A DNA stretch of 64,000 bases from the IMG/VR virus record IMGVR_UViG_3300042970_000025; one strand, written 5' to 3'. The DNA is from a virus (lineage: Duplodnaviria > Caudoviricetes). The notes beneath the pieces are model-generated. The model saw nothing but the letters and a program-made list of their open reading frames with translations. It searched no databases and was not told the DNA's origin. Of this stretch, positions 36,130 through 50,376 are shown piece by piece. The translations under genes and the position numbers were made by a program. The stretch's first letter is position 1; each line of letters opens with the position of its first letter.

Positions 36130-38739
36130 ATGGCTTTGCCTGATTCAGATAAAGTAATACAGGAATTAAACCGCCGGTTCGCCGCGCCGCTTCCGGAGTT
36201 CTATCAGCGCCGGATCATTTTCTGGTACGACGAGGATCGGGATTTTGAGGAAAAGGTTCAGAACGGAGAAATCGAACTGGCGGACTCAAAGCTCATCGAG
36301 CTGAATGAGACAAATAATTTTGAAGTAAAGAAGCTTTTGACGCATGACGACAGGACGAGCAATTTCTGTGTCTATTGCCCGGTCACATATCCAGATGAAA
36401 AGAACTGGCTTCTGCCGGTTCAGCTTTACAGCGAGGAATTCCGTGCGGATCTTGTTTCCATCTGGCTTGAGGAGATGGGCATAGAGAACACGGCGAACCT
36501 GCGTAAGACGGTGAAGGACTATCGTCCGTTTTTCAAGACGAAGGCTCACCGAACGAAGGTGGCAAATCTCAATCAGAAGATTACTGCGCCTGTACATCTT
36601 CATAAGGCTGTGATTGCGGTTCTCTGCGGTGTGAAAGATACCGGCCCGAATCTTTTGATCCGGACAGTGCTCCGTGCTGGAACCAATCAGGAACAGAATG
36701 GCATCTATCAGTCGCTCGTGAAGTATGGAGCGGACTCTGTCTTCTGGCAGATGGTCGCACAGGTGACCGGATATCGGGAAGAAACGCCAGATCTCGGCAT
36801 GCTTTCATGTCATATTCTGATGACAGCCGCTACGCGTACTATGCGCATGGATAATCTGGTCGGACTGGATAGCTTCATTTCCATTCCGCACCAGAGCTAT
36901 TGCTATGACTTTATGTCGGAGTGGATGCATTCGGATGAGGTGCAGGAACTTTACGGCATCGCGAGAGAAACAGAGGACGAGCTGCGTCTTCCGGCAAGAT
37001 TCAGCCAGCTTCCGATTGAAGAACTGGTCGGAACCGAGATCTTCCCGTGCATCGACGAATGCATCTTGAAAAAGCTGATGACAGATATCATCGACCATAC
37101 GATCAACGTAGATGTCATCGAGCAGACTGTGGGACAACGAAGGACGATGCTCTGGTATGAGCGGGTCCAGAATTTCTACGAGGGTGTTCTGGAAGTTGCG
37201 CATATGCAGCAGTTCTATCTGGATCATGCAGCAGGGTTCCATACGGTGGAGCCGCACAAGGCCTGGAAGGAATACACGACGGATTATTACAAGATGGACA
37301 CTTATTACAGACTGTTCCATGTTGCATTCGGAGAATCTTTGAATTCATCGAATCCGCTGCTTGATGATCTGTTCAAGCATGTGGCGGACAATGTGGAAGG
37401 GCTGTACGCAAACTGGTACTTGGACAATCTCGGCTCCAACTGGGCGAATGCGGCAGCAGATAACCTGAAGGAATACGGCAGGATTCTGGAAGTTCCGCAG
37501 CAGCGGGATTTCTATAGAACCTATGTACAGAATGCAGACACGCGTGTCTTCGTGATCATCTCTGATGCAATGCGCTATGAGGTGGCCGCTACACTTTCAG
37601 AGGAATTGCGCCGGGAAACGCAGGCGGAAGTGAAGCTTTCATCCTGTGAAGGAATCTTCCCGACCGTGACGAAGTTTGGCATGACTGCGCTTTTGCCGCA
37701 CAAGGAACTAAAGGCAGAATTGAAGTCAAACGGCGTCGTGGGTGTTCTGGCGGATGGTCAGCCGACGGATGCGCAGTACCGGGATGGAATCCTTAAAAAA
37801 GCAAATCCGGCAAGTGTGGCACTTAAGTACAAGTATCTCATTAAGATGAAACACGCCGAACGCAGTGCGTTGGTGAAGGGTATGGAGGTCGTGTATATCT
37901 ATCACGATAAGATCGATGAGACGAGTCATACCGATGAAGCACTTGTTTTCGATTCCTGTAGTGACGCGATTTCCGAGCTCAAGAACATGGTGCGGATCAT
38001 CGTGAATGAGTTCAGCGGGACGAGAATATACATCACTTCTGACCACGGATTTATCTATACCTATAAGCCGCTGACAGAGGATGCAAAGGTAGATAAGACG
38101 CCATCCTCAGCCGATGATATAGAAGTCGATCGCCGCTATCTCATCACGAAGAAGGGCGCGAAGCCGGAATATCTGCTTCCGGTGAAGTTCCTCGATGGCA
38201 CGCAGTATGACGCTTTTGTGCCGATCGGGAATACGCGGATCAAGAAGAAAGGCGGCGGTCTGAATTTCGTGCATGGAGGCATCAGCCTGCAGGAGATGGT
38301 TGTGCCGGTGATCGATTACCATTACATGCGTACGGACAGCGCCGGGTATCAGAAAAATAAGAAAAAGTATGATACCAAGCCTGTAACGCTGAGCCTTCTC
38401 TCCGCAAGCCGCAAGATCAGCAATATGATCTTCTCTTTGAATTTCTATCAGAGGGAAGCTGTCGGTGATAACCGGGAAGCTGCAAATTACCTTCTGTACT
38501 TTGTCGATTCAGAAGGAAAACAGGTCAGCGATACGCAGCGGGTGATTGCGGATAAGACGAGCAGCAATAATCAGGACAGGACGTTCCGCGTGAGCTTCAA
38601 CCTGAAATCAATGAAATACAGTAATAAAGAAAGCTATTATCTGGTAATTGCAGACGAAAGCGGTCTGCAGCTGCCACAGCGTGAAGAATTCTCCATAGAC
38701 ATTGCCTTTGCTGTGGATGACTTCGATTTCTTCAGTTAA
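36130..38739 (+). CDS. pglZ: BREX-1 phosphatase PglZ
   Basis: RRIIFWYD, IISDAMRYE, ITSDHGF, FVHGGISLQEMVVP. Confidence 0.93.
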   Translation: MALPDSDKVIQELNRRFAAPLPEFYQRRIIFWYDEDRDFEEKVQNGEIELADSKLIELNETNNFEVKKLLTHDDRTSNFCVYCPVTYPDEKNWLLPVQLYSEEFRADLVSIWLEEMGIENTANLRKTVKDYRPFFKTKAHRTKVANLNQKITAPVHLHKAVIAVLCGVKDTGPNLLIRTVLRAGTNQEQNGIYQSLVKYGADSVFWQMVAQVTGYREETPDLGMLSCHILMTAATRTMRMDNLVGLDSFISIPHQSYCYDFMSEWMHSDEVQELYGIARETEDELRLPARFSQLPIEELVGTEIFPCIDECILKKLMTDIIDHTINVDVIEQTVGQRRTMLWYERVQNFYEGVLEVAHMQQFYLDHAAGFHTVEPHKAWKEYTTDYYKMDTYYRLFHVAFGESLNSSNPLLDDLFKHVADNVEGLYANWYLDNLGSNWANAAADNLKEYGRILEVPQQRDFYRTYVQNADTRVFVIISDAMRYEVAATLSEELRRETQAEVKLSSCEGIFPTVTKFGMTALLPHKELKAELKSNGVVGVLADGQPTDAQYRDGILKKANPASVALKYKYLIKMKHAERSALVKGMEVVYIYHDKIDETSHTDEALVFDSCSDAISELKNMVRIIVNEFSGTRIYITSDHGFIYTYKPLTEDAKVDKTPSSADDIEVDRRYLITKKGAKPEYLLPVKFLDGTQYDAFVPIGNTRIKKKGGGLNFVHGGISLQEMVVPVIDYHYMRTDSAGYQKNKKKYDTKPVTLSLLSASRKISNMIFSLNFYQREAVGDNREAANYLLYFVDSEGKQVSDTQRVIADKTSSNNQDRTFRVSFNLKSMKYSNKESYYLVIADESGLQLPQREEFSIDIAFAVDDFDFFS

Positions 38740-38744
38740 AGGAT

Positions 38745-40874
38745 GTGATACGAATGGATGATATTTCTACCGGGGAAAAGAGTGCCCGTGAAATCATAAA
38801 AGAAAAGCTCCGTCAGAATTTTGATGGGAAGATCGTGCGGAAGGATCTGACTAAGAAGATCAAGGAAGGCGCGAATGTGCCGGTCTATGTTCTGGAGTTC
38901 CTGCTCGGCCAGTACTGCAGTTCCGATGACGAGGAAGTCATCGAACAGGGCATTGAGAATGTGAAGCGGATTCTGGCGGACAACTTTGTCCGTCCGGATG
39001 AAGCCCAGAAGGTTTTGTCGAAGCTTCGCCAGAGGGGGAGCCACACCATTATTGATATGGTGACAGTGAATCTCAATCTCCATTATGACGAGTACGAGGC
39101 GAGCTTTTCTAATCTCGGCCTTGCCGGGATTCCAATCAGTGAGGAATATCCGGAGAAGTATGACCGCCTGCTCTGCGGAGGTATCTGGTGCATTGTTCAG
39201 CTTGAGTATAACTCCGGCGAAGACGCAGTGCCAGATATTATTTCTCTTTCTGGCGACCGGATTCAATCGAAGCGGAAAAAGCAGAAAGATCTGACACCGA
39301 TCAGCATCCGCAAGCTGACGCCGATCCAGTTGCCAAACGTGGATATGGAGGGCCTGAAAGAAGGCCGGAAAGACTTCACAAAAGATGAATGGCTCGATAT
39401 TTTAATGCGCTCCATTGGAATGGAGCCGGATGAACTGACCTACAGAGAGAAATGGTTGCTTCTCACCCGGATGATCCCGCTGGTCGAGAATAACTTCAAT
39501 CTCTGCGAGCTGGGTCCACGTTCGACCGGAAAGTCGTATCTGTATAAAGAAGTGTCGCCGAACAGTATTCTTGTATCCGGTGGGCAGACGACGGTCGCAA
39601 ACCTCTTCTATAACATGGGCCGGAAGACCATCGGACTTGTCGGACTATGGGACTGCGTGGCTTTTGATGAAGTCGCTGGAATCAAGTTCAAAGATAACGA
39701 CGGCATTCAGATTATGAAGGACTACATGGCTTCCGGTTCCTTTGCCCGCGGAAAGGAAGAAAAGGCTGCTTCTGCGTCAATGGTTTTCGTTGGCAATATC
39801 AATCAGAGTGTCGATGTGCTTCTGAAGACATCCAGCCTCTTTGATCCGTTTCCGCCGGAAATGGGTACGGATACAGCATTCCTGGATCGTATTCACTGCT
39901 ATCTGCCGGGATGGGAAGTGCCGAAGTTCCGCCCTGAACATTTTACAGATGACTATGGATTCATCACGGATTATCTGGCCGGATGGATTCGCGAGATGCG
40001 GAAAGAGCAGCTGGGTGACGCGCTGGATCATTATTTCCATCTCGGCAAGAACTTGAACCAGCGTGATGTCATAGCGGTCCGCAGGATGGTGGATGGTTAT
40101 TTGAAACTCATGTATCCAAACGGCGAATTCACAAAGGACGACATAGAGGAAGTCCTGAAGATTTCTCTCGAAATGCGCCGCCGCGTTAAAGAGCAACTCA
40201 AGAAGCTCGGTGGCATGGAATTCTATGATGTGAACTTCAGCTATATCGACAACGAGGCCTTTGAAGAAAAGTATGTATCCGTCCCAGAGCAAGGCGGCGG
40301 AAAGTTGATCCCGGAAGGAATCTGCAATCCAGGTCAGGTCTATACCGTGTCCCGTGGTAAGAGCGGCATGCTCGGTGTATTCCGTCTGGAATCGCAGATG
40401 TTGCCGGGAACTGGAAAGCTCGTATGCACCGGCCTTGGAAGCGATCGTGGTGCAAAGGAAGCAACAAATACTGCATTCAATTTCCTGAAGGCGAATGCAA
40501 AGCGGATCAGCGGTTCCATCAGCATGACGTCGAAGGATTACAACATCGATTATCAGGATTTGCAGGGCATCGGAATCACAGACAAGCTGGCTCTGCCGAC
40601 GGTCATCTCTATCTGTTCGATTGCGCTGAACCGACCGACGCAGAGTTCTCTGGCCGTCCTGGGAGAGATCAGCATCGCCGGTTCCATGATAAAAGTTGAT
40701 GAGCTAGCAAATACGCTCCAGGTATGCCTTGACAGCGGAGCTAAGAAGATTTTGCTTCCGATCACATCGGCAGCAGACATGGGAACTGTACCACCGGAAC
40801 TGATGGGAAGCTTTCACATTATTTTTTATCAGAGCGCGGAGGACGCGGTGTTCAAGGCGCTGGGAGTGGAATAA
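38745..40874 (+). CDS. brxL: BREX Lon-like protein BrxL
   Basis: NVPVYVLEFLLG, ELGPRSTGKS, VAFDEV, C-terminal Lon-like domain. Confidence 0.93.
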   Translation: MIRMDDISTGEKSAREIIKEKLRQNFDGKIVRKDLTKKIKEGANVPVYVLEFLLGQYCSSDDEEVIEQGIENVKRILADNFVRPDEAQKVLSKLRQRGSHTIIDMVTVNLNLHYDEYEASFSNLGLAGIPISEEYPEKYDRLLCGGIWCIVQLEYNSGEDAVPDIISLSGDRIQSKRKKQKDLTPISIRKLTPIQLPNVDMEGLKEGRKDFTKDEWLDILMRSIGMEPDELTYREKWLLLTRMIPLVENNFNLCELGPRSTGKSYLYKEVSPNSILVSGGQTTVANLFYNMGRKTIGLVGLWDCVAFDEVAGIKFKDNDGIQIMKDYMASGSFARGKEEKAASASMVFVGNINQSVDVLLKTSSLFDPFPPEMGTDTAFLDRIHCYLPGWEVPKFRPEHFTDDYGFITDYLAGWIREMRKEQLGDALDHYFHLGKNLNQRDVIAVRRMVDGYLKLMYPNGEFTKDDIEEVLKISLEMRRRVKEQLKKLGGMEFYDVNFSYIDNEAFEEKYVSVPEQGGGKLIPEGICNPGQVYTVSRGKSGMLGVFRLESQMLPGTGKLVCTGLGSDRGAKEATNTAFNFLKANAKRISGSISMTSKDYNIDYQDLQGIGITDKLALPTVISICSIALNRPTQSSLAVLGEISIAGSMIKVDELANTLQVCLDSGAKKILLPITSAADMGTVPPELMGSFHIIFYQSAEDAVFKALGVE

Positions 40875-43655: not shown

Positions 43656-45224
43656 TTATTTTTCAATCTCCACGCTCACGCCGGATTTGAATTCAACGGT
43701 GAAGCGAGATGGGTATACGGTGATTTTCTGAATCAGTCTGCGCACGAGCTTTTCGTCAAACTCGGTAATTTCTGCGCTCTGCTTCCCGATGAAATCCTGC
43801 AGCTCGGAAATTCTATCTAAAGCTTCTCTCTGTTTGCAGCTGTCCGCTTCGGCCTGTTTCTTTTGCTCTCTGAGCCGGAAGATCTCGTCGGCTATTGCAT
43901 TGTAGTCCTGTTTGCTGTTTGCTTTTTGGATAAGCTCTTTCTGAAGCTCATTGAGCCGATCCTGGATGCCATCCGGGGAGAGGGTATCGGCTTTCGAAAC
44001 AGCCCTTGCGATGTTTTCCTGAAGCTGCTGAATAAAGGAAGATTTATCGGTAAGGATCTGGTTGATCGCGTCAAGCGTGATTTCTTTCAGCAGTTCTTCT
44101 TTGACGGTCCGGTTGGTGCAGTTGATCTCTGCAGATGATGGCTCCAGCCGGCTGATGCAGCGCCAGACGATGGACTTCTTTCCGTGGTTATTCCAGTGGA
44201 CGCGCCGGTAAAGGTCACCGCATTCACTGCAGAAAACAATCTGGGAAAAGCAGCAGCTGCTGGAAAAATTACGCTTTTTCCCAGAAGGGCTTTTATGAAC
44301 GTTGCGGCGGCGGACAATCTCAGCCTGGACCTGCATGAAAATGTCTTTTGGGATAATTGCCGGATGGTCGCCCTCCACGTAATACTGAGGAACAGAGCCG
44401 TCGTTTTTGATTCGTTTCTTGGTAAGAAAGTCGACGGTTACCGTTTTCTGAAGAAGTGCATCGCCAAAGTATTTCTCGTTTCGCAGGATCTTGTTGATGG
44501 AGGAGATCCACCATTTCGTTTTGCCTGCACCGGTGAGGATCCCGTCTTCTTCTAATCCTTTTGCGATCTGTCCCATTGAGTAGCCATCTAGGTATTCCCG
44601 GTAGATGCGCTTTACGACTTCGGCTTCCTTTGGGACAATGACAAGCTTTCCATCCGCGTCTTTGGTATAGCCGAGAAAGCGGGTGTGATTGACCTGCACT
44701 TTTCCCTGCTGGTAGCGGTACTGCAGTCCAAGCTTAACATTCTGGGAAAGGCTCTGAGATTCCTGCTGAGCAAGGCTGGCCATGATGGTAATCAGGACTT
44801 CACCTTTGGCGTCCATGGTATTGATGGATTCTTTTTCAAACCAGACCGCGATGTTCTTTTCTTTGAGTTTTCGAATGTACTTCAGGCAGTCCAGAGTGTT
44901 CCTTGCAAATCTGGATATCGATTTGGTGATGACCATATCGATGTTTCCGGTCATGCATTCTTCAATCATCCGGTTGAATTCTTCTCTCTTCTTGGTGTTG
45001 GTGCCTGAGATTCCGTCGTCCGCGAAGATCCCGGCAAGCTGCCAGTCCTCGTGGCTTTTGATGTAATCGGTGTAGTGGGAGACCTGGGTTTCATAGCTGG
45101 TTTCCTGTTCATCTGTATCTGTAGAGACGCGGCAGTAGGCAGCTACGCGCAGCTTTGGCTTTTCAGATTTCTTAACGCTGTTTCCGACCTGTCTTCTGGC
45201 GGGGATAATGGTTACGTTTGACAA
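43656..45224 (-). CDS. Large serine recombinase
   Basis: [18 protein letters not shown], recombinase domain, Zn ribbon CSECG. Confidence 0.95.
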
Positions 45225-45634: not shown

Positions 45635-47206
45635 TCAAATCCTTTCCGTTAAATCGAGTCCGCATTTTAGTTCGAACGTAAGTTCATTTCTAGACTTTAC
45701 TATGATTTTGCTTACAAACTTTTCAAAAAGCTCTTCGTCGAAATCATCCAGCATGACACCTTTTTCGGTGAAGCGCAGGAGCGCAAAGGCAGAGGATGCT
45801 ATAGCGGCTTTACTGCTTGCCGAATGGGAAAGCGTTTCTTTTTCCTTCCGGAGCGCTCCAGCTTCCTTTCTAAGGGCATTTGTTTCCTTTAGGCAGATCG
45901 CCTGACTGATGATGCCATCTGCCAATAGTTTTGTCAGGGTTTCCCGCTTTTCTGTGTTTTGCGCAAGATCGGTTTCGATCTGCTGGATTCTTCGGAGAGC
46001 GTCGTCTCTAGAGGAACTTCGGAGCGCCGCCGCATAAGGGCGGAGAATGGTTCTCCTGGAGAAAACGAGTTTGTTCAGCATCGTGACAAAGGCGTATTGA
46101 ATCGCATCGTCCCGGATAAACTTCATGCTGCATTGCTTTTTATCTGTGATGTGAGTCTGGCAGCTCCAGACCGCGTAACGGTTTAGACTGCTGGAGCAGA
46201 TCCTTCTTCGAAACACGCTGCCGCACTCTCCGCAGATAATTTTTCCGGAAAAAGGGTAGCGCTTCTGGTATTTACGGCCTTGCCTTTGGATTCCTTTTTC
46301 TTCTGCATGCTGCTGAATCAGTCTTTGCGCAGCATCAAACTCTTCATGGCTGATGATCGCCTCGTGGTGGTTATGGCAGAGGTACATCGTCTGTTCTCCA
46401 TGATTGTGGTGCCGGTTAAACTGCGAATCGGTCCAGGTCTTTTGAAACAGGCAGTCACCGGTGTATTTTTCATTTGTGAGCATTCCTCTAATGGTACTTT
46501 CCGACCATTTGCCGCCACGTCTACTTGGGATCTTCTTTTCATTCAGATCCTTTGCGATGGCGGTCATTCCTTTCCCTGAAAGAAGAGAAGTGAAGATCCC
46601 TTTTACAATTTCCGCCTGTGCAGGATTCACAGACATCTTTCCATCTTTCCAGTCGTAGCCGTAGGGCACGCTGCCTGCCTTAAAGGTGCCGCTTTCAAAC
46701 CGCTTTTGAATGGACCATTTGCTGTTCTGAGAAATGGATGAGGACTCATCCTGGGCCATACTCGAGAGAAGGGAAAGAAGCAGCTCGCTTTCCATAGTTC
46801 CGGTGTCGATGTTTTCTTTTTCAAACCAGATCGGAATATGCAGAGACAAAAGTTCACGTACAAGCTGAAGACAGTCTGCCGTATTCCTTGAGAAACGGCT
46901 GATTGACTTGGTGATCACGAAGTCGATTTTTCCTTTTCTGCAGTCTTGCATTAAACGCATCAATTCCGGGCGCTTGTCTTTCTTTGTCCCGCTGATGCCT
47001 TCGTCAAAGTAAAGCCCTGCAAACACAAGATCAGGTCTTGCTGCGATGTAGCTTTCGTAGTGTTGTTTCTGGGTTTCTAAGCTTTCCAGCTGCGCGTCCA
47101 TATCGGTGGATACGCGGCAGTAGGCTGCCGTCCGAAGTTTCTCTGGCTTTGCTCTTGTTTCTTCTATTTTCGTTACTTTCTTCAATGCTTTTTCCTCCTT
47201 TTTCAT
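45635..47206 (-). CDS. Large serine recombinase
   Basis: [23 protein letters not shown]; true start may be TTG at 47185. Confidence 0.95.
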   Translation of the reverse strand: MKKEEKALKKVTKIEETRAKPEKLRTAAYCRVSTDMDAQLESLETQKQHYESYIAARPDLVFAGLYFDEGISGTKKDKRPELMRLMQDCRKGKIDFVITKSISRFSRNTADCLQLVRELLSLHIPIWFEKENIDTGTMESELLLSLLSSMAQDESSSISQNSKWSIQKRFESGTFKAGSVPYGYDWKDGKMSVNPAQAEIVKGIFTSLLSGKGMTAIAKDLNEKKIPSRRGGKWSESTIRGMLTNEKYTGDCLFQKTWTDSQFNRHHNHGEQTMYLCHNHHEAIISHEEFDAAQRLIQQHAEEKGIQRQGRKYQKRYPFSGKIICGECGSVFRRRICSSSLNRYAVWSCQTHITDKKQCSMKFIRDDAIQYAFVTMLNKLVFSRRTILRPYAAALRSSSRDDALRRIQQIETDLAQNTEKRETLTKLLADGIISQAICLKETNALRKEAGALRKEKETLSHSASSKAAIASSAFALLRFTEKGVMLDDFDEELFEKFVSKIIVKSRNELTFELKCGLDLTERI

Positions 47207-47493: not shown

Positions 47494-50376
47494 TTAGTCT
47501 TTTTTGTAGAACGAACATTCGTACCCATCAGCCCGAAGAAGAAGCCCTGGCGCCCAGGGAGGCGTTCGTCCCATGAGATCACAGATCTCCTGAAGCTCGG
47601 TCTCAAGAGGGCACTCGATAATCAGCTCATCGTGGACGTGGGCGACAATAGAGCAGTCTGAGAGATTGTGCATGGCATAGCAGAGGATGTCTCTTGCGAT
47701 GGCCTGGATGATGTTCTCCACGAACTTTGGCCCGTAGGACTCAATCCGCTCCCACTTTTTCGAAGGGCCTATTCCCATGTAAGTAACCGATTCCTCTCCG
47801 AAGCGGTTTTCTCCAATCTGGGGCTTTACGTAAGACAGTCTCCGGCCAGATGGCAGGGTGATAAACAGCATCTGGCTTTGGCATTTGATCGTCAGGCCAT
47901 GCGTTTTCGTGACTATCTTCTTCTTTACCGCTGTTTTTACCGCCCGGTCCACATCCCACCAGAGCCGCACGATGTGGGGATTGGCTTTTCTCCACATGTC
48001 GACGATGGGTTTAAGCTCAGATTCCTTAAGGCCCATCTCGAGAGCGCCCATAGCCTTTAGAGCTCCTACAGAACCTCCGTATCCGCAGTTATGAACTAAT
48101 TTCCCCGATACGGTAAAACGGTGATATTCTCCGGCATTTCGTATGTCATAAACTCTAACCTTGCCTCGATGAGCCGCCAATTTTTTCTCTTTTCTTTGAC
48201 AGCCTGCTCTGCACTTTCTATAATCCCCGTACGGTCCATTCCCTGGCTTAGCTTCTTGATTACAACACTTCTGGCATAAGGCCAATATTTCTGATGGAAT
48301 TCGCTTAAGACGGTATTCCTTCGATTTGCCTGGTTCTGCCTGCGAGTTGCGAAGCGGATGTTTCCAGGGGCATAATTTCCATTGTTGTTGATCCGGTCGA
48401 TTTCCATTTCCCGGCTTGGAAGACCGAAAGTACGAATGAGATAAAGCCCGGCTTCGGTTACTGATGGAAATTCGAACTTTATGCCTCGTCCTCCATAGTT
48501 TGGATAGTTGCGGTCCTTTGGATTTGTGCATCGTTGTTTTGCAGCGGTAAGACGTCTGTCCAGCCATACCGGGATTTTCCTCGGTTGGGAGCAATGCTGA
48601 CAGCCCCTGGATTTTCTTCTTCTTAGACTTCCAAGGTCTGTCCATTGGATTCTTCCGCAGCCGGTGCATTGGGTTAGAACATAACACCGGTTCCAACTCT
48701 CGCTCCAGCGCTTTTGGGGACTGATAATCTTCACCCAGCCGTACTGCCTGCCTACTATCTCCTGCCTGTATGAGATGTGCGCCGCTTCTGGCGGCTTCTT
48801 CAAAGTGTACTGGCTGACATTTCCCTTCGATGAAAACGAGGTGATCTGGTGTTGCGGTAAGTCCTTCATAAGTGATTACCTCCTTTCTTCCTCTGTAGAC
48901 TACTCCGTCATGCTTTACCCAGGACTTCCCGTCCCAGAGAAGATCACTCCTTGTTACAGATTCTATCGGCTTTAAGCCGTGGTTTGTAAGTACAGGCTGG
49001 CCTTCCGCGATGCAGGCGAGCACTGCGATTTTCCCTTTCTGGCGGAGCTCCCCGTTGATGCCGTGCTTGACCACGGGAACGCCAAACATGGCAGAAGCCG
49101 TGGAGCAGTAGATATCTTCACCCTTCGCAAAAGCATCCATCGTGTGGGTTTCTCCCGCCAGCCAGGCGAGAACTCTAGCTTCAATGGAGGAGAAGTCGGA
49201 AACGATGAACTTGCATCCCTCCCGCGGGATAAAGGCGGTCCGGATCAGCTGGCTTAAGGTATCCGGGATGTCATCATAAAGTAACTGAAGAGCTTCATAG
49301 TCACTAGATTTTACCAGAGCTCTTGCTTCTCCTAAATCCGGCATGGTATTTCTTGGAAGGTTCTGAAGCTGAATCAGGCGCCCTGAGAATCTTCCGCTTC
49401 GGTTGGCGCCGTAGAACTGAAACATCCCTCTGGCCCGTCCATCCTTACAGGCTGCGTTTTCCATTGCCTGGTATTTGCGCACAGAGGATTTCGCTAATTT
49501 CTGGCGTAGCTTCAGGACTTCCTGAATGCTGGGCGGCGCTGTTTTAATCAGTTCTGCAACCGCTTTCTTTCCAAGGGTCTCTGTTTCGATGCCGCGCTCC
49601 TTCAGCCAGCTTTTCATTTGCATCACGCTGTTTGGATTTTCCAAGCCGGTCAGGTCCCTTAGTTTATCTGTCAGTTGCTGTTTGGACTGTTCATCAATTG
49701 TAATGGCGGACCGAACAAGCGTCTTATCAATCCTAATTCCTCTGTCGTTGATCTTCTGATCGAGCTTGTATTCTTCCCAGACGAAATCCGGGACAGGGTA
49801 GTGGGAGAGTTTCCTTTGGATAGACATTTCGACCTCCACATCCCGCTTGTTGTAGAATTTAAAGAGATTCCACTTTTCTATTGCGTCAGATGGGAGGTTC
49901 CGCGTTTTACCTCCGTTTGCCTTCGTTGGCCTGCAGGGGATGCAGAAATAGCGGATTAAGTTTTTACCCTCTGTCAGCTTCTGCTCCTTAAGGCCAAGAG
50001 CCTCACCAGATTCTTTTAGAGATAACGGAAGCCCAAGGTAGGCAGACCAGATCATGGAGCAGCGCCAGTTCTTAGGACTTAGATACTTTGCAGAGAGCCG
50101 CTCGGGATAGCAGCGGTGAAGATACGTAGACAAGCAGACGCGTTCAAAGTTAGCGTTAAAGGCCCATTTAGAAATTTCATCGTCTGTCAGGGCGTCTAAG
50201 ATGCCTCTTGGAAGCCTTTCTTTTGCCGCAAGGTCTACAACCTGAACCGGGCCATCGTCCAGCGCGTAACCAAAGAGCAGAATCTCAAAATCAGGAGCCT
50301 CTGCATATCGGTACACGCCGGATTTGTTCAGGTTGATGCTGGAATAGGTTTCAATATCGATGTGAAGTGTTTTCAT
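47494..50376 (-). CDS. Family A DNA polymerase with 3'-5' exonuclease domain, interrupted by an intein
   Basis: DIET Exo I; DFSSIEAR motif A; RQKGKIAVLA/CGYGG motif B; HVHDE motif C. Confidence 0.95.
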   Translation of the reverse strand: MKTLHIDIETYSSINLNKSGVYRYAEAPDFEILLFGYALDDGPVQVVDLAAKERLPRGILDALTDDEISKWAFNANFERVCLSTYLHRCYPERLSAKYLSPKNWRCSMIWSAYLGLPLSLKESGEALGLKEQKLTEGKNLIRYFCIPCRPTKANGGKTRNLPSDAIEKWNLFKFYNKRDVEVEMSIQRKLSHYPVPDFVWEEYKLDQKINDRGIRIDKTLVRSAITIDEQSKQQLTDKLRDLTGLENPNSVMQMKSWLKERGIETETLGKKAVAELIKTAPPSIQEVLKLRQKLAKSSVRKYQAMENAACKDGRARGMFQFYGANRSGRFSGRLIQLQNLPRNTMPDLGEARALVKSSDYEALQLLYDDIPDTLSQLIRTAFIPREGCKFIVSDFSSIEARVLAWLAGETHTMDAFAKGEDIYCSTASAMFGVPVVKHGINGELRQKGKIAVLACIAEGQPVLTNHGLKPIESVTRSDLLWDGKSWVKHDGVVYRGRKEVITYEGLTATPDHLVFIEGKCQPVHFEEAARSGAHLIQAGDSRQAVRLGEDYQSPKALERELEPVLCSNPMHRLRKNPMDRPWKSKKKKIQGLSALLPTEENPGMAGQTSYRCKTTMHKSKGPQLSKLWRTRHKVRISISNRSRALSHSYFRSSKPGNGNRPDQQQWKLCPWKHPLRNSQAEPGKSKEYRLKRIPSEILALCQKCCNQEAKPGNGPYGDYRKCRAGCQRKEKKLAAHRGKVRVYDIRNAGEYHRFTVSGKLVHNCGYGGSVGALKAMGALEMGLKESELKPIVDMWRKANPHIVRLWWDVDRAVKTAVKKKIVTKTHGLTIKCQSQMLFITLPSGRRLSYVKPQIGENRFGEESVTYMGIGPSKKWERIESYGPKFVENIIQAIARDILCYAMHNLSDCSIVAHVHDELIIECPLETELQEICDLMGRTPPWAPGLLLRADGYECSFYKKD
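48088..49014 (-). mobile_element. Class 1 intein (309 aa) in polymerase motif B
   Basis: Block A CIAEGQPVLT, block B TATPDH, block F VYDI, block G LVHN followed by extein Cys. Confidence 0.93.
48096..48869 (-). CDS. HNH-type homing endonuclease nested in the +1 frame of the intein
   Basis: CTGCG/GCQHC zinc motif; KQRCTNP...YGGRGI; IDRINNNGNYAPGNIRFAT...QANRR; SD AAAGGAGGT 8 nt before the ATG. Confidence 0.85.
   Translation of the reverse strand: MKDLPQHQITSFSSKGNVSQYTLKKPPEAAHISYRQEIVGRQYGWVKIISPQKRWSESWNRCYVLTQCTGCGRIQWTDLGSLRRRKSRGCQHCSQPRKIPVWLDRRLTAAKQRCTNPKDRNYPNYGGRGIKFEFPSVTEAGLYLIRTFGLPSREMEIDRINNNGNYAPGNIRFATRRQNQANRRNTVLSEFHQKYWPYARSVVIKKLSQGMDRTGIIESAEQAVKEKRKNWRLIEARLEFMTYEMPENITVLPYRGN

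Follow-up and report, generated by a model that had tools for sequence, protein, structure and literature searches.

A stretch of 64,000 nucleotides from an IMG/VR virus record (IMGVR_UViG_3300042970_000025; Duplodnaviria, Caudoviricetes), hereafter the window, carries a prophage gene for a family-A DNA polymerase (47494..50376, minus strand; 960 codons, intein included; Pfam DNA_pol_A, E 3.8e-25). Its motif B is interrupted by a class-1 intein (48088..49014), inside which a second gene lies on the same strand in the +1 frame (48096..48869). We consider this to be probably a two-frame selfish element residing in the polymerase gene and composed of a self-splicing intein and a separate +1 gene, the latter likely encoding a homing endonuclease. 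The anatomy of the element is conserved among homologues, each of the two frames is under purifying selection in its own part of the insert, and folds are predicted for both products.

According to this interpretation, the polymerase precursor would be translated together with the intein, which would then excise itself by protein splicing: an N-S shift at Cys1 would be followed by transfer to Cys+1, Asn309 would cyclise, and an S-N shift would complete the reaction; the spliced polymerase would keep a Cys in place of a Leu at one position of the O-helix. The ~190 central residues of the intein would act only as a stop-free, disordered spacer. Meanwhile ribosomes would start at an internal Shine-Dalgarno (SD) sequence and ATG at intein codon 49 and stop 8 nucleotides (nt) before the intein end, and the product of 257 amino acids (aa), most likely the homing endonuclease of the element, would introduce a cut or a nick into motif-B alleles that lack the intein (...AARATHGCNGARCTNGCN|CTYGGNTAYGGNGGN...). 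Repair would then copy the intein, along with the Leu-to-Cys codon, into the empty allele. Since the open reading frame (ORF) is started separately and in another frame, splicing and mobility would be decoupled.

Anatomy of the polymerase intein and its nested gene

The window polymerase shares 58-67% identity with phage genes annotated as DNA polymerase I, and a megablast search of the gene against phages returned short pieces only. All the features of the gene described here are located on the minus strand. The N-extein (49015..50376) encodes 454 aa and ends with ...RQKGKIAVLA in motif B (O-helix), while the C-extein (47494..48087), of 197 aa plus stop, begins with CGYGGSVGALKAM; both were delimited by translation, and CGYGG follows the insert. 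The intein itself (927 nt, 309 aa, in frame with both exteins) runs from Cys1 to His308-Asn309. Homologues were gathered by tblastn and pattern searches, and Cys1 (TGC, 49014-49012) is invariant in 16/16 aligned inteins. The N-terminal splicing domain (residues 1-95, 48730..49014) comprises blocks A and B and was assigned by conservation in alignment A2, predicted local distance difference test (pLDDT) values and fold matches; block B reads T55-P-D-H58, with T55 and H58 invariant in the same alignment. At the other end, the C-terminal splicing domain (residues 275-309, 48088..48192; RVYDIRNAG..RFTVSGKLVHN), assigned by invariant columns and pLDDT, holds blocks F/G, where D290 within RVYDIRNAG, H308, N309 and the following Cys+1 are all invariant. 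The +1 Cys codon of the C-extein (TGC, 48085..48087) is TGY in 34/34 intein-bearing alleles; intein-free alleles have an uninterrupted motif B (...LA|LGYGG) and a Leu codon (CTY/TTG) at the +1 site in 69/69.

The AlphaFold2 model of the intein frame is confident only at residues 1-85 and 275-309, with pLDDT of 82-92 for residues 1-80 and of 79-88 at the C-terminal splicing part (80-92 over residues 1-80 and 280-309 taken together). Between them, the central linker (residues 86-274, 48193..48759) is basic, unconserved, stop-free and predicted to be disordered (pLDDT <50). All 50 best Foldseek matches of this model were inteins or related Hint-fold autoprocessing domains (probability 0.85-1.00), gp41-1, Npu DnaE and Mtu RecA among them; the E value reached only 3e-3 because of the long disordered centre. 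The sequence-only reading of this DNA had described a 927-bp motif-B insertion with class 1 splicing blocks, and every feature that it listed is present at 48088-49014; its view of the centre of the intein frame as shadow sequence agrees with the low pLDDT and with a ratio of non-synonymous to synonymous variation (pN/pS) of 1.25.

Natural mini-inteins occupy the same motif-B site, with lengths of 122 aa (L033-L035:2706-3071) and 168 aa (L029:2847-3350; L004:2347-2850), and in all of them the central linker is missing. Fragments of the nested gene are retained in the 168-aa form (Javan422 type). From the invariant catalytic residues, together with the selection for an open polymerase frame reported below, we infer that the 927-nt intein undergoes protein splicing. 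In three other intein-bearing IMG/VR loci (L018, L019 and L020) the stop-free polymerase stretch extends for 820, 652 and 670 codons, versus ~960 usually, so the N-extein may be interrupted or broken at another point upstream of the intein.

The nested gene encodes an HNH-like (His-Me finger-like) putative homing endonuclease of 257 aa, and its frame offset follows from the coordinates (50376-48869 = 1507 = 1 mod 3). Its ATG (48867..48869) is formed by the intein codons TAT-GAA (Tyr49-Glu50) and is preceded, with an 8-nt spacer, by the SD sequence AAAGGAGGT (48878..48886), which overlies intein codons R-K-E-V; the stop codon TAG (48098..48096) ends 8 nt short of the intein end. The gene thus laid out shares ~47 codons with the N-terminal splicing domain and ~30 with the C-terminal one. 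A stop-free +1 ORF with its SD written into codons R-K-E-V is what had been predicted from the letters of the window, and it was confirmed at 48869-48096.

Conservation, start signals and selection in the two frames

The same layout was found in the Streptococcus prophages Javan255, 101, 104, 107 and 113, in PhiSdyV1524, in the Gardnerella phage vB_Gva_AB1 and in ~25 IMG/VR contigs. In all those records the match to the nested protein lies in +1 relative to the annotated polymerase coding sequence (CDS), and in every one of them the nested gene is unannotated; it is annotated in 0/8 of the related phage polymerase matches in the searched collection. Each of the full-length distinct inteins (n = 28) measures exactly 927 nt. 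The polymerase frame is open in 28/28, and in 26/28 no stop interrupts the +1 frame between the conserved ATG and its end, the nested ORFs of L003 and L036 having one premature stop each, whereas the third frame contains 13-34 stops (18 in the third frame of the window's own nested stretch).

These figures bear on a trivial explanation, namely that the frame offset is a sequencing or assembly error in an ordinary in-frame HNH intein, or that the insert is an intron or part of a split gene. One lineage does read the nuclease core in the intein frame (see below), but 28 independent sequences share the same offset and the exact length, and metagenome contigs of four independent anaerobic-digester/bioreactor studies display substitutions only, with no indels, over 47900-49200. 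Compensating indels, which the sequence-only reading had pointed to as the possible source of a spurious offset, were looked for in the four metagenome assemblies and none was seen, so sequencing error was rejected. Regarding the intron or split gene, synonymous resampling of the nested gene introduced a mean of 9.9 intein-frame stops in the window and 10-13 on average across sequences, and a stop-free intein frame was obtained in 0/3000 resamples (3000 trials per sequence). The polymerase frame is therefore held open by selection, as would be expected of an intein but not of an intron or a split gene, neither of which would need such openness; given also the invariant splicing residues, both were rejected, and we attach almost no weight to any explanation of this kind.

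The two-frame design extends well beyond the near relatives. Nested proteins P0125, P0138 and P0153 (Logan contigs L117, L118 and L119) are 36-42% identical to that of the window (alignment A1), and their ORFs lie again in +1 in class-1 inteins at the motif-B site of far more divergent PolA genes. The junctions of these divergent relatives read ..KGTWLA|C...HN|CIYGAG and ..KVGMLS|C...SN|CCFQTGA, while the L117 contig holds the C-terminal junction only (...HN|CQYGGAAG). It follows that the design is old and that several polymerase clades have it. In a search restricted to proteins of near length, the 120 best matches listed, each representing a 90%-identity cluster, were 63-96% identical to the window's nested protein over the full length, and clusters in this identity range number in the hundreds; the majority of them come from short contigs, where the nested ORF is called because the polymerase ORF is cut. 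At E <= 1e-3, relatives of the nested protein amount to 57,919 representatives.

The signals for starting the nested gene are also conserved. The Tyr codon over the nested start is TAT in 29/29 loci, although the other Tyr codons of the same genes are TAT in 57% only, and the xAT-G is retained in distant relatives even where the intein residue is His. A purine-rich, AGGAGG-like match lies upstream of the nested ATG in the 29 loci (6/6 positions in 9, 5/6 in 13 and 4/6 in 7), an SD-like motif is also found upstream in the distant relatives L117 and L119, and the SD-to-ATG distance is kept at 8-11 nt across near and distant relatives. We read these signals as pointing to internal initiation at the nested SD/ATG.

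A different route would be that the nuclease is made as a fusion with the polymerase's N-terminal portion, by programmed frameshifting or transcriptional slippage and with no internal initiation. Consistent with it, both frame-changing indels of the in-frame lineage described below (L120-L124) are located in A-runs, including GCAAAAAAAGAC, and a few proteins of 760-781 aa join, at the protein level, DNA_pol_A and 60-76% of the nested protein in a single frame. However, stops in the +1 frame occur just upstream of the nested ATG in 26/28 sequences (L018 and L032 being those without any within ~30 codons), no slippery run is present at the frame boundary in the window, and the folding of the RNA around the SD/ATG is unremarkable, with no difference from shuffled sequences (z = 0.19). 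The ATG, moreover, is kept against codon usage with an SD 8-11 nt before it. Owing to the upstream stops and the conserved ATG and SD, programmed frameshifting was rejected as the main route, and we regard a fusion of this type as highly improbable. No promoter-like site was found on the polymerase strand within the polymerase gene. On the opposite strand, a perfect sigma-70 consensus (TTGACA, 17 nt, TATAAT; 12/12) lies at 48196-48224, inside the intein and the nested gene and antisense to the polymerase; the number of promoter-like sites in the polymerase region is not above chance.

Column entropy indicates which frame is constrained along the insert, with its peak at the third codon position of the intein at nt 1-189 and 883-927 and at the third position of the nested gene at nt 190-880. 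In agreement with this, pN/pS over the central 585 nt was 0.29 for the nested frame and 1.25 for the intein frame, while the first 144 nt gave 0.27 in the intein frame, and in the two overlap zones both frames ranged between 0.44 and 0.58. Strain variants from the four digester metagenome studies behaved likewise: their central substitutions are 15 synonymous and 5 non-synonymous when read in the nested frame, and 4 synonymous and 16 non-synonymous when read in the intein frame. The sequence comparisons thus support purifying selection that acts centrally on the nested frame and, towards the two ends, on the intein frame. The comparison of homologous alleles proposed by the sequence-only reading has accordingly come out in its favour, with both frames open (28/28 and 26/28), an SD-like motif and the ATG conserved and a central +1 pN/pS of 0.29; its central idea, that splicing and mobility are decoupled through an independently started nuclease-like gene, is supported by the comparative evidence on conservation, selection, start signals and folds. 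For co-occurring strain variants of the four digester metagenomes, divergence from the window is 9% in the C-extein (47918-48100), 6% in the last part of the intein (48073-48261) and <1% over 48232-49200, and this step in divergence suggests a recombination breakpoint within the intein.

The nested protein, its alleles and an in-frame sister lineage

The nested protein matches two PHROG families named HNH endonuclease (PHROG 374, E 1e-24; PHROG 3377, E 6e-19), and no match was obtained against Pfam, NCBIfam or PDB sequences, PDB having been searched also by profile. Its model, built from an alignment of 41 relatives (mean pLDDT 84.4), begins with a beta-barrel that includes a C4 zinc ribbon (residues 31-94); a beta-beta-alpha core follows (residues 156-184), and then a helical tail (residues 200-240). 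The zinc ribbon C68-x2-C71 ... C90-x2-C93 (48591..48668) closes the beta-barrel domain; C68 is invariant and C71, C90 and C93 are nearly so (90% or more; alignment A1). Further motifs of the protein are ...QRCTNP...YGGRGI... and IDRINNNGNYAPGNIRFATRRQNQANRR. The core (48318..48404; EIDR...NY...GNIRFA..RRQNQANRR), recognised by predicted structure and conservation, is composed of strands 156-159 and 171-174 and helix 176-184, with pLDDT around 90. Residues D158, R159, Y166, N170 and N182 of the core are invariant or nearly so, R159 and Y166 being invariant, and the nearly invariant D158 and N182 stand at the sequence positions expected for metal ligands.

The window had been said to encode a clear HNH-type endonuclease. 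The PHROG matches and the beta-beta-alpha core agree with this description, which is nevertheless overstated, as the position of the catalytic His of HNH enzymes is taken by an Arg and the Pfam HNH_3 family was not reached by the nested protein. A Foldseek search of the nested model against PDB gave nothing at E <= 0.001, HNH enzymes appearing only near an E of 1. PacI (3m7k_A) was the second-ranked structural match and the highest-ranked nuclease among the matches (Z 5.9, root-mean-square deviation 2.8, 75 residues, within residues 97-185). PacI is devoid of the catalytic His and uses a loop tyrosine instead (PMC5714182), and the nested protein has the invariant Tyr166 in the loop between the core strands; Tyr166 may possibly stand in for the missing His as in PacI. 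We take this likeness as a lead and not as a demonstration, because the Z value is weak and the core domain also occurs in tandem copies.

With regard to mobility, intein-free alleles make up 69/103 of the complete sampled loci, and many Javan phages add to them. On the extein tree, the presence of the intein needs at least 4 changes, and the full intein L012 is placed inside a clade of 36 empty alleles. Homing accounts most economically for a strongly conserved nuclease-like gene residing in the intein and for the empty, mini and decayed alleles that surround it; the motif-B intein would then spread, or have spread, by homing, and the nested protein would act as a nuclease.

Several observations weigh against a homing nuclease. 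At the protein level, where the first strand ends and HNH enzymes have their catalytic His, there is an invariant Arg159 (DR in 189/192 motif instances); Pfam HNH_3 is matched weakly by 3/41 family members (best E 0.0069); the search of PDB sequences found no match; and the Z of 5.9 for PacI is below the level that excludes a chance arrangement. Besides, the core domain (..RC.NP...Y..YGGRGI...DRIDN.G.Y..GN.RW.T...Q..N) is found 2-4 times in tandem in P0151, P0221, P0227 and P0262, proteins of 500-830 aa that match no Pfam family; such repeats are unusual for a catalytic nuclease domain and would suit a DNA-binding module. At the level of the alleles, an approximately unbiased (AU) test did not reject a single clade holding all intein-bearing alleles on the extein tree (p = 0.15), and pairwise identities of inteins and exteins are correlated (r = 0.96) with no outliers. 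Among the sampled loci no pair of near-identical inteins in divergent exteins was present, so that no recent transfer was seen. A sliding-window scan for co-conversion found L012 leaning slightly to the intein-bearing alleles in the last 180 nt upstream, the sequences being too divergent for a tract to be called. Finally, four Streptococcus constellatus strains harbour an intein-bearing prophage (Javan104-type) together with a second prophage whose intein-free polymerase has not been invaded.

Some of these points would suit a second reading, in which the nested gene is translated into a DNA-binding protein derived from an HNH fold, either a regulator or a partner that recruits a nuclease, and the intein persists mainly by vertical descent. 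The Arg in place of the catalytic His, the tandem copies of the core, the co-divergence of inteins and exteins and the unrejected single clade speak for it, and His-Me finger groups without the His, the PacI group apart, have been described as inactive DNA binders (PMC5714182). It fits less well with the loop Tyr166, invariant as in the active PacI, and with Asp158 and Asn182, nearly invariant at the usual metal-ligand positions. When proteins are compared by their features, the closest clusters are viral, and some of these have the homing-endonuclease accessory domains NUMOD and AP2, which is a lead only; a homing cycle would also agree with the location in an intein, with the derivatives reduced to mini-inteins or pseudogenes and with the abundance of empty alleles. 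We thus judge the DNA-binding alternative unlikely, though it deserves to be kept in mind, and continue to favour a homing endonuclease. The intein-free polymerase of Javan105 has a TAA in place of the motif-B Gln codon (..LR*KGKIAELA|LGYGG; L126:1669-1671), 8 codons ahead of the empty site, and its annotation is split into two CDSs; Javan102, 108 and 112 are likely alike.

A search for longer proteins uncovered a cluster of seven polymerases of 962 aa (P0277 and P0282-P0287; >50 contigs from several studies) in which the intein frame itself encodes residues 53-203 of the nested protein. At the nucleotide level (L120-L124, from five samples; L120:2842-3771) this intein measures 930 nt and is distinguished by three changes: an A-run near nt 301 has lost 1 nt, 3 nt have been inserted, and a 1-nt insertion near nt 753 has created GCAAAAAAAGAC. 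The zinc ribbon and the catalytic core are thereby in the intein frame, and all the invariant core residues are retained. In the +1 frame the ATG is still present, as are 65 open codons from the old N-terminus, and the old C-terminal helical domain is readable in +1 only; with remnants of both ends of the old gene left in +1, the in-frame state is therefore derived. Variable sites among L120-L124 number 1/930 in the intein and 22/1959 in the extein, the intein differences being too few for a selection test.

This in-frame sister lineage is new relative to the published cases and bears on the model of intein origin in which splicing comes first and the nuclease later. A bolder combined proposal, which we advance tentatively and think rather doubtful as a whole, is that the nested protein founds a large undescribed class of intein-borne homing endonucleases, overprinted on PolA inteins, with a PacI-like tyrosine mechanism (Asp-Arg...Tyr...Asn...Asn) distributed over many phage clades, and that the family displays in L120-L124 a transition from an out-of-frame to an in-frame nuclease. 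If true, L120-L124 would represent a route from a free-standing nuclease to the canonical intein nuclease, one that Gosselin et al. put forward as a proposal.

Genomic context and comparison with known systems

The polymerase gene belongs to a prophage replication module, with a DUF2800 nuclease and an Enc34-type single-stranded DNA-binding protein preceding PolA; two large serine recombinases come next, and siphovirus tail genes lie on the other side. The tandem recombinase genes (43656-45224 and 45635-47206, minus strand) appear to mark the end of the prophage beside the polymerase, and just beyond them are found the BREX (bacteriophage exclusion) genes PglZ (36130-38739, plus strand) and BrxL (38745-40874, plus strand). 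Bioreactor and anaerobic-digester metagenomes from 17 studies contain the stretch, and none of the sequencing runs listed for it is an RNA run.

As the nested gene is unannotated in the phage records and is called almost only on short metagenome contigs, polymerase inteins of this type are likely being misread as decaying or mini-inteins. The element also offers a clean natural case of long-term dual coding in which one frame is selected only for openness, with both ends of the nested gene overlapping functional splicing blocks. A TAT-to-TAC change would abolish the nested start and leave the intein protein unchanged, which would make splicing separable from mobility.

The architecture itself is already on record, and the window is an intact further case from a large PolA motif-B family. 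The sequence-only reading had known of no description for a PolA motif-B intein. The out-of-frame design has been published; for the PolA motif-B intein family no paper was found in the literature searched. The published examples were termed rare, and the size of the present family and the recurrence of its layout in several PolA clades suggest instead a stable design.

PacI (PDB 3LDY/3M7K; group 20 of the His-Me fingers in Jablonska et al. 2017, PMC5714182) resembles the nested protein in two features: it has a beta-beta-alpha fold with no catalytic His, and it has the loop Tyr. PacI differs in being a free-standing restriction enzyme with no detectable sequence similarity and a weak Z, and the equivalence of Tyr166 is putative.

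Separation of the nuclease from the splicing domains is known from fractured genes, where a free-standing endonuclease gene lies between the halves of a split intein (Dassa et al. 2009, PMC2677866), an arrangement that likewise fits an origin in which splicing comes first and the nuclease invades later. There, however, the host gene is physically split and the nuclease gene is non-overlapping, whereas in the window the host frame continues through the nuclease gene. In the ShiLan domain (Arsenault, Gosselin, Gogarten, Genes 2025, PMC11855218), an insertion in a phage methylase hides an HNH gene in another frame; this is the case that the sequence-only reading had mentioned in outline. The insertion is stop-free in the host frame, and its HNH-type gene starts just inside and stops a few bases before the end; it lacks splicing domains and is not an intein, and no ribosome-binding site was found there, while the window has both splicing blocks and an SD.

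Inteins with out-of-frame nuclease genes have been reported in two other settings. One is the DnaX intein of cyanobacteria, whose LAGLIDADG gene is out of frame (Phillips, DeSimone, Gogarten; bioRxiv 10.64898/2026.09.14.751524, which credits the first proposal to Gorbalenya 1998). There, an SD-like motif belongs to the overlapping ORF, omega exceeds 1 when computed for the intein frame but is low for the nested one, and full, mini and empty alleles coexist, as in our family. That nuclease is a LAGLIDADG protein in +2 within a cellular clamp-loader gene, and ours is His-Me-like, in +1 and within a prophage family-A polymerase. The "non-canonical" inteins of actinobacteriophages, with an endonuclease VII-like homing endonuclease out of frame (Gosselin, Arsenault, Gogarten; bioRxiv 10.1101/2025.01.02.630785), have the splicing domain in frame with a phage replication or packaging gene, an unstructured centre in the intein frame and a same-strand out-of-frame ORF with nuclease similarity and a confident fold; the same authors point out that annotation pipelines overlook such genes. 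They differ from the window in the endonuclease VII-like nuclease, in the use of "frame 3" and in the polymerase host, which is Pol III alpha there and family A here. Their secondary ORFs, moreover, are mostly outside the splicing domain, whereas the ORF of the window overlaps both splicing ends (~47 and ~30 codons).

A further counterpart is found in Hamiltonella phage APSE-1 (NC_000935), whose family-A-type polymerase P45 (L125:28827-31808, minus strand) carries a homologous class-1 intein with a nested +1 CDS, APSE-1_46, annotated as "HNH endonuclease" (L125:29132-29554, minus strand). The core of APSE-1_46 is 39% identical to the nested protein of the window over 75 aa, including LDRINNN.GY..N. 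The intein of APSE-1 is inserted at another polymerase site, after ...KTYGGK near the C-terminal motif, and APSE-1_46 is shorter, with 140 aa and without the zinc-ribbon domain; in both phages, a family-A-type polymerase holds a class-1 intein with its HNH-like gene nested in the +1 frame.

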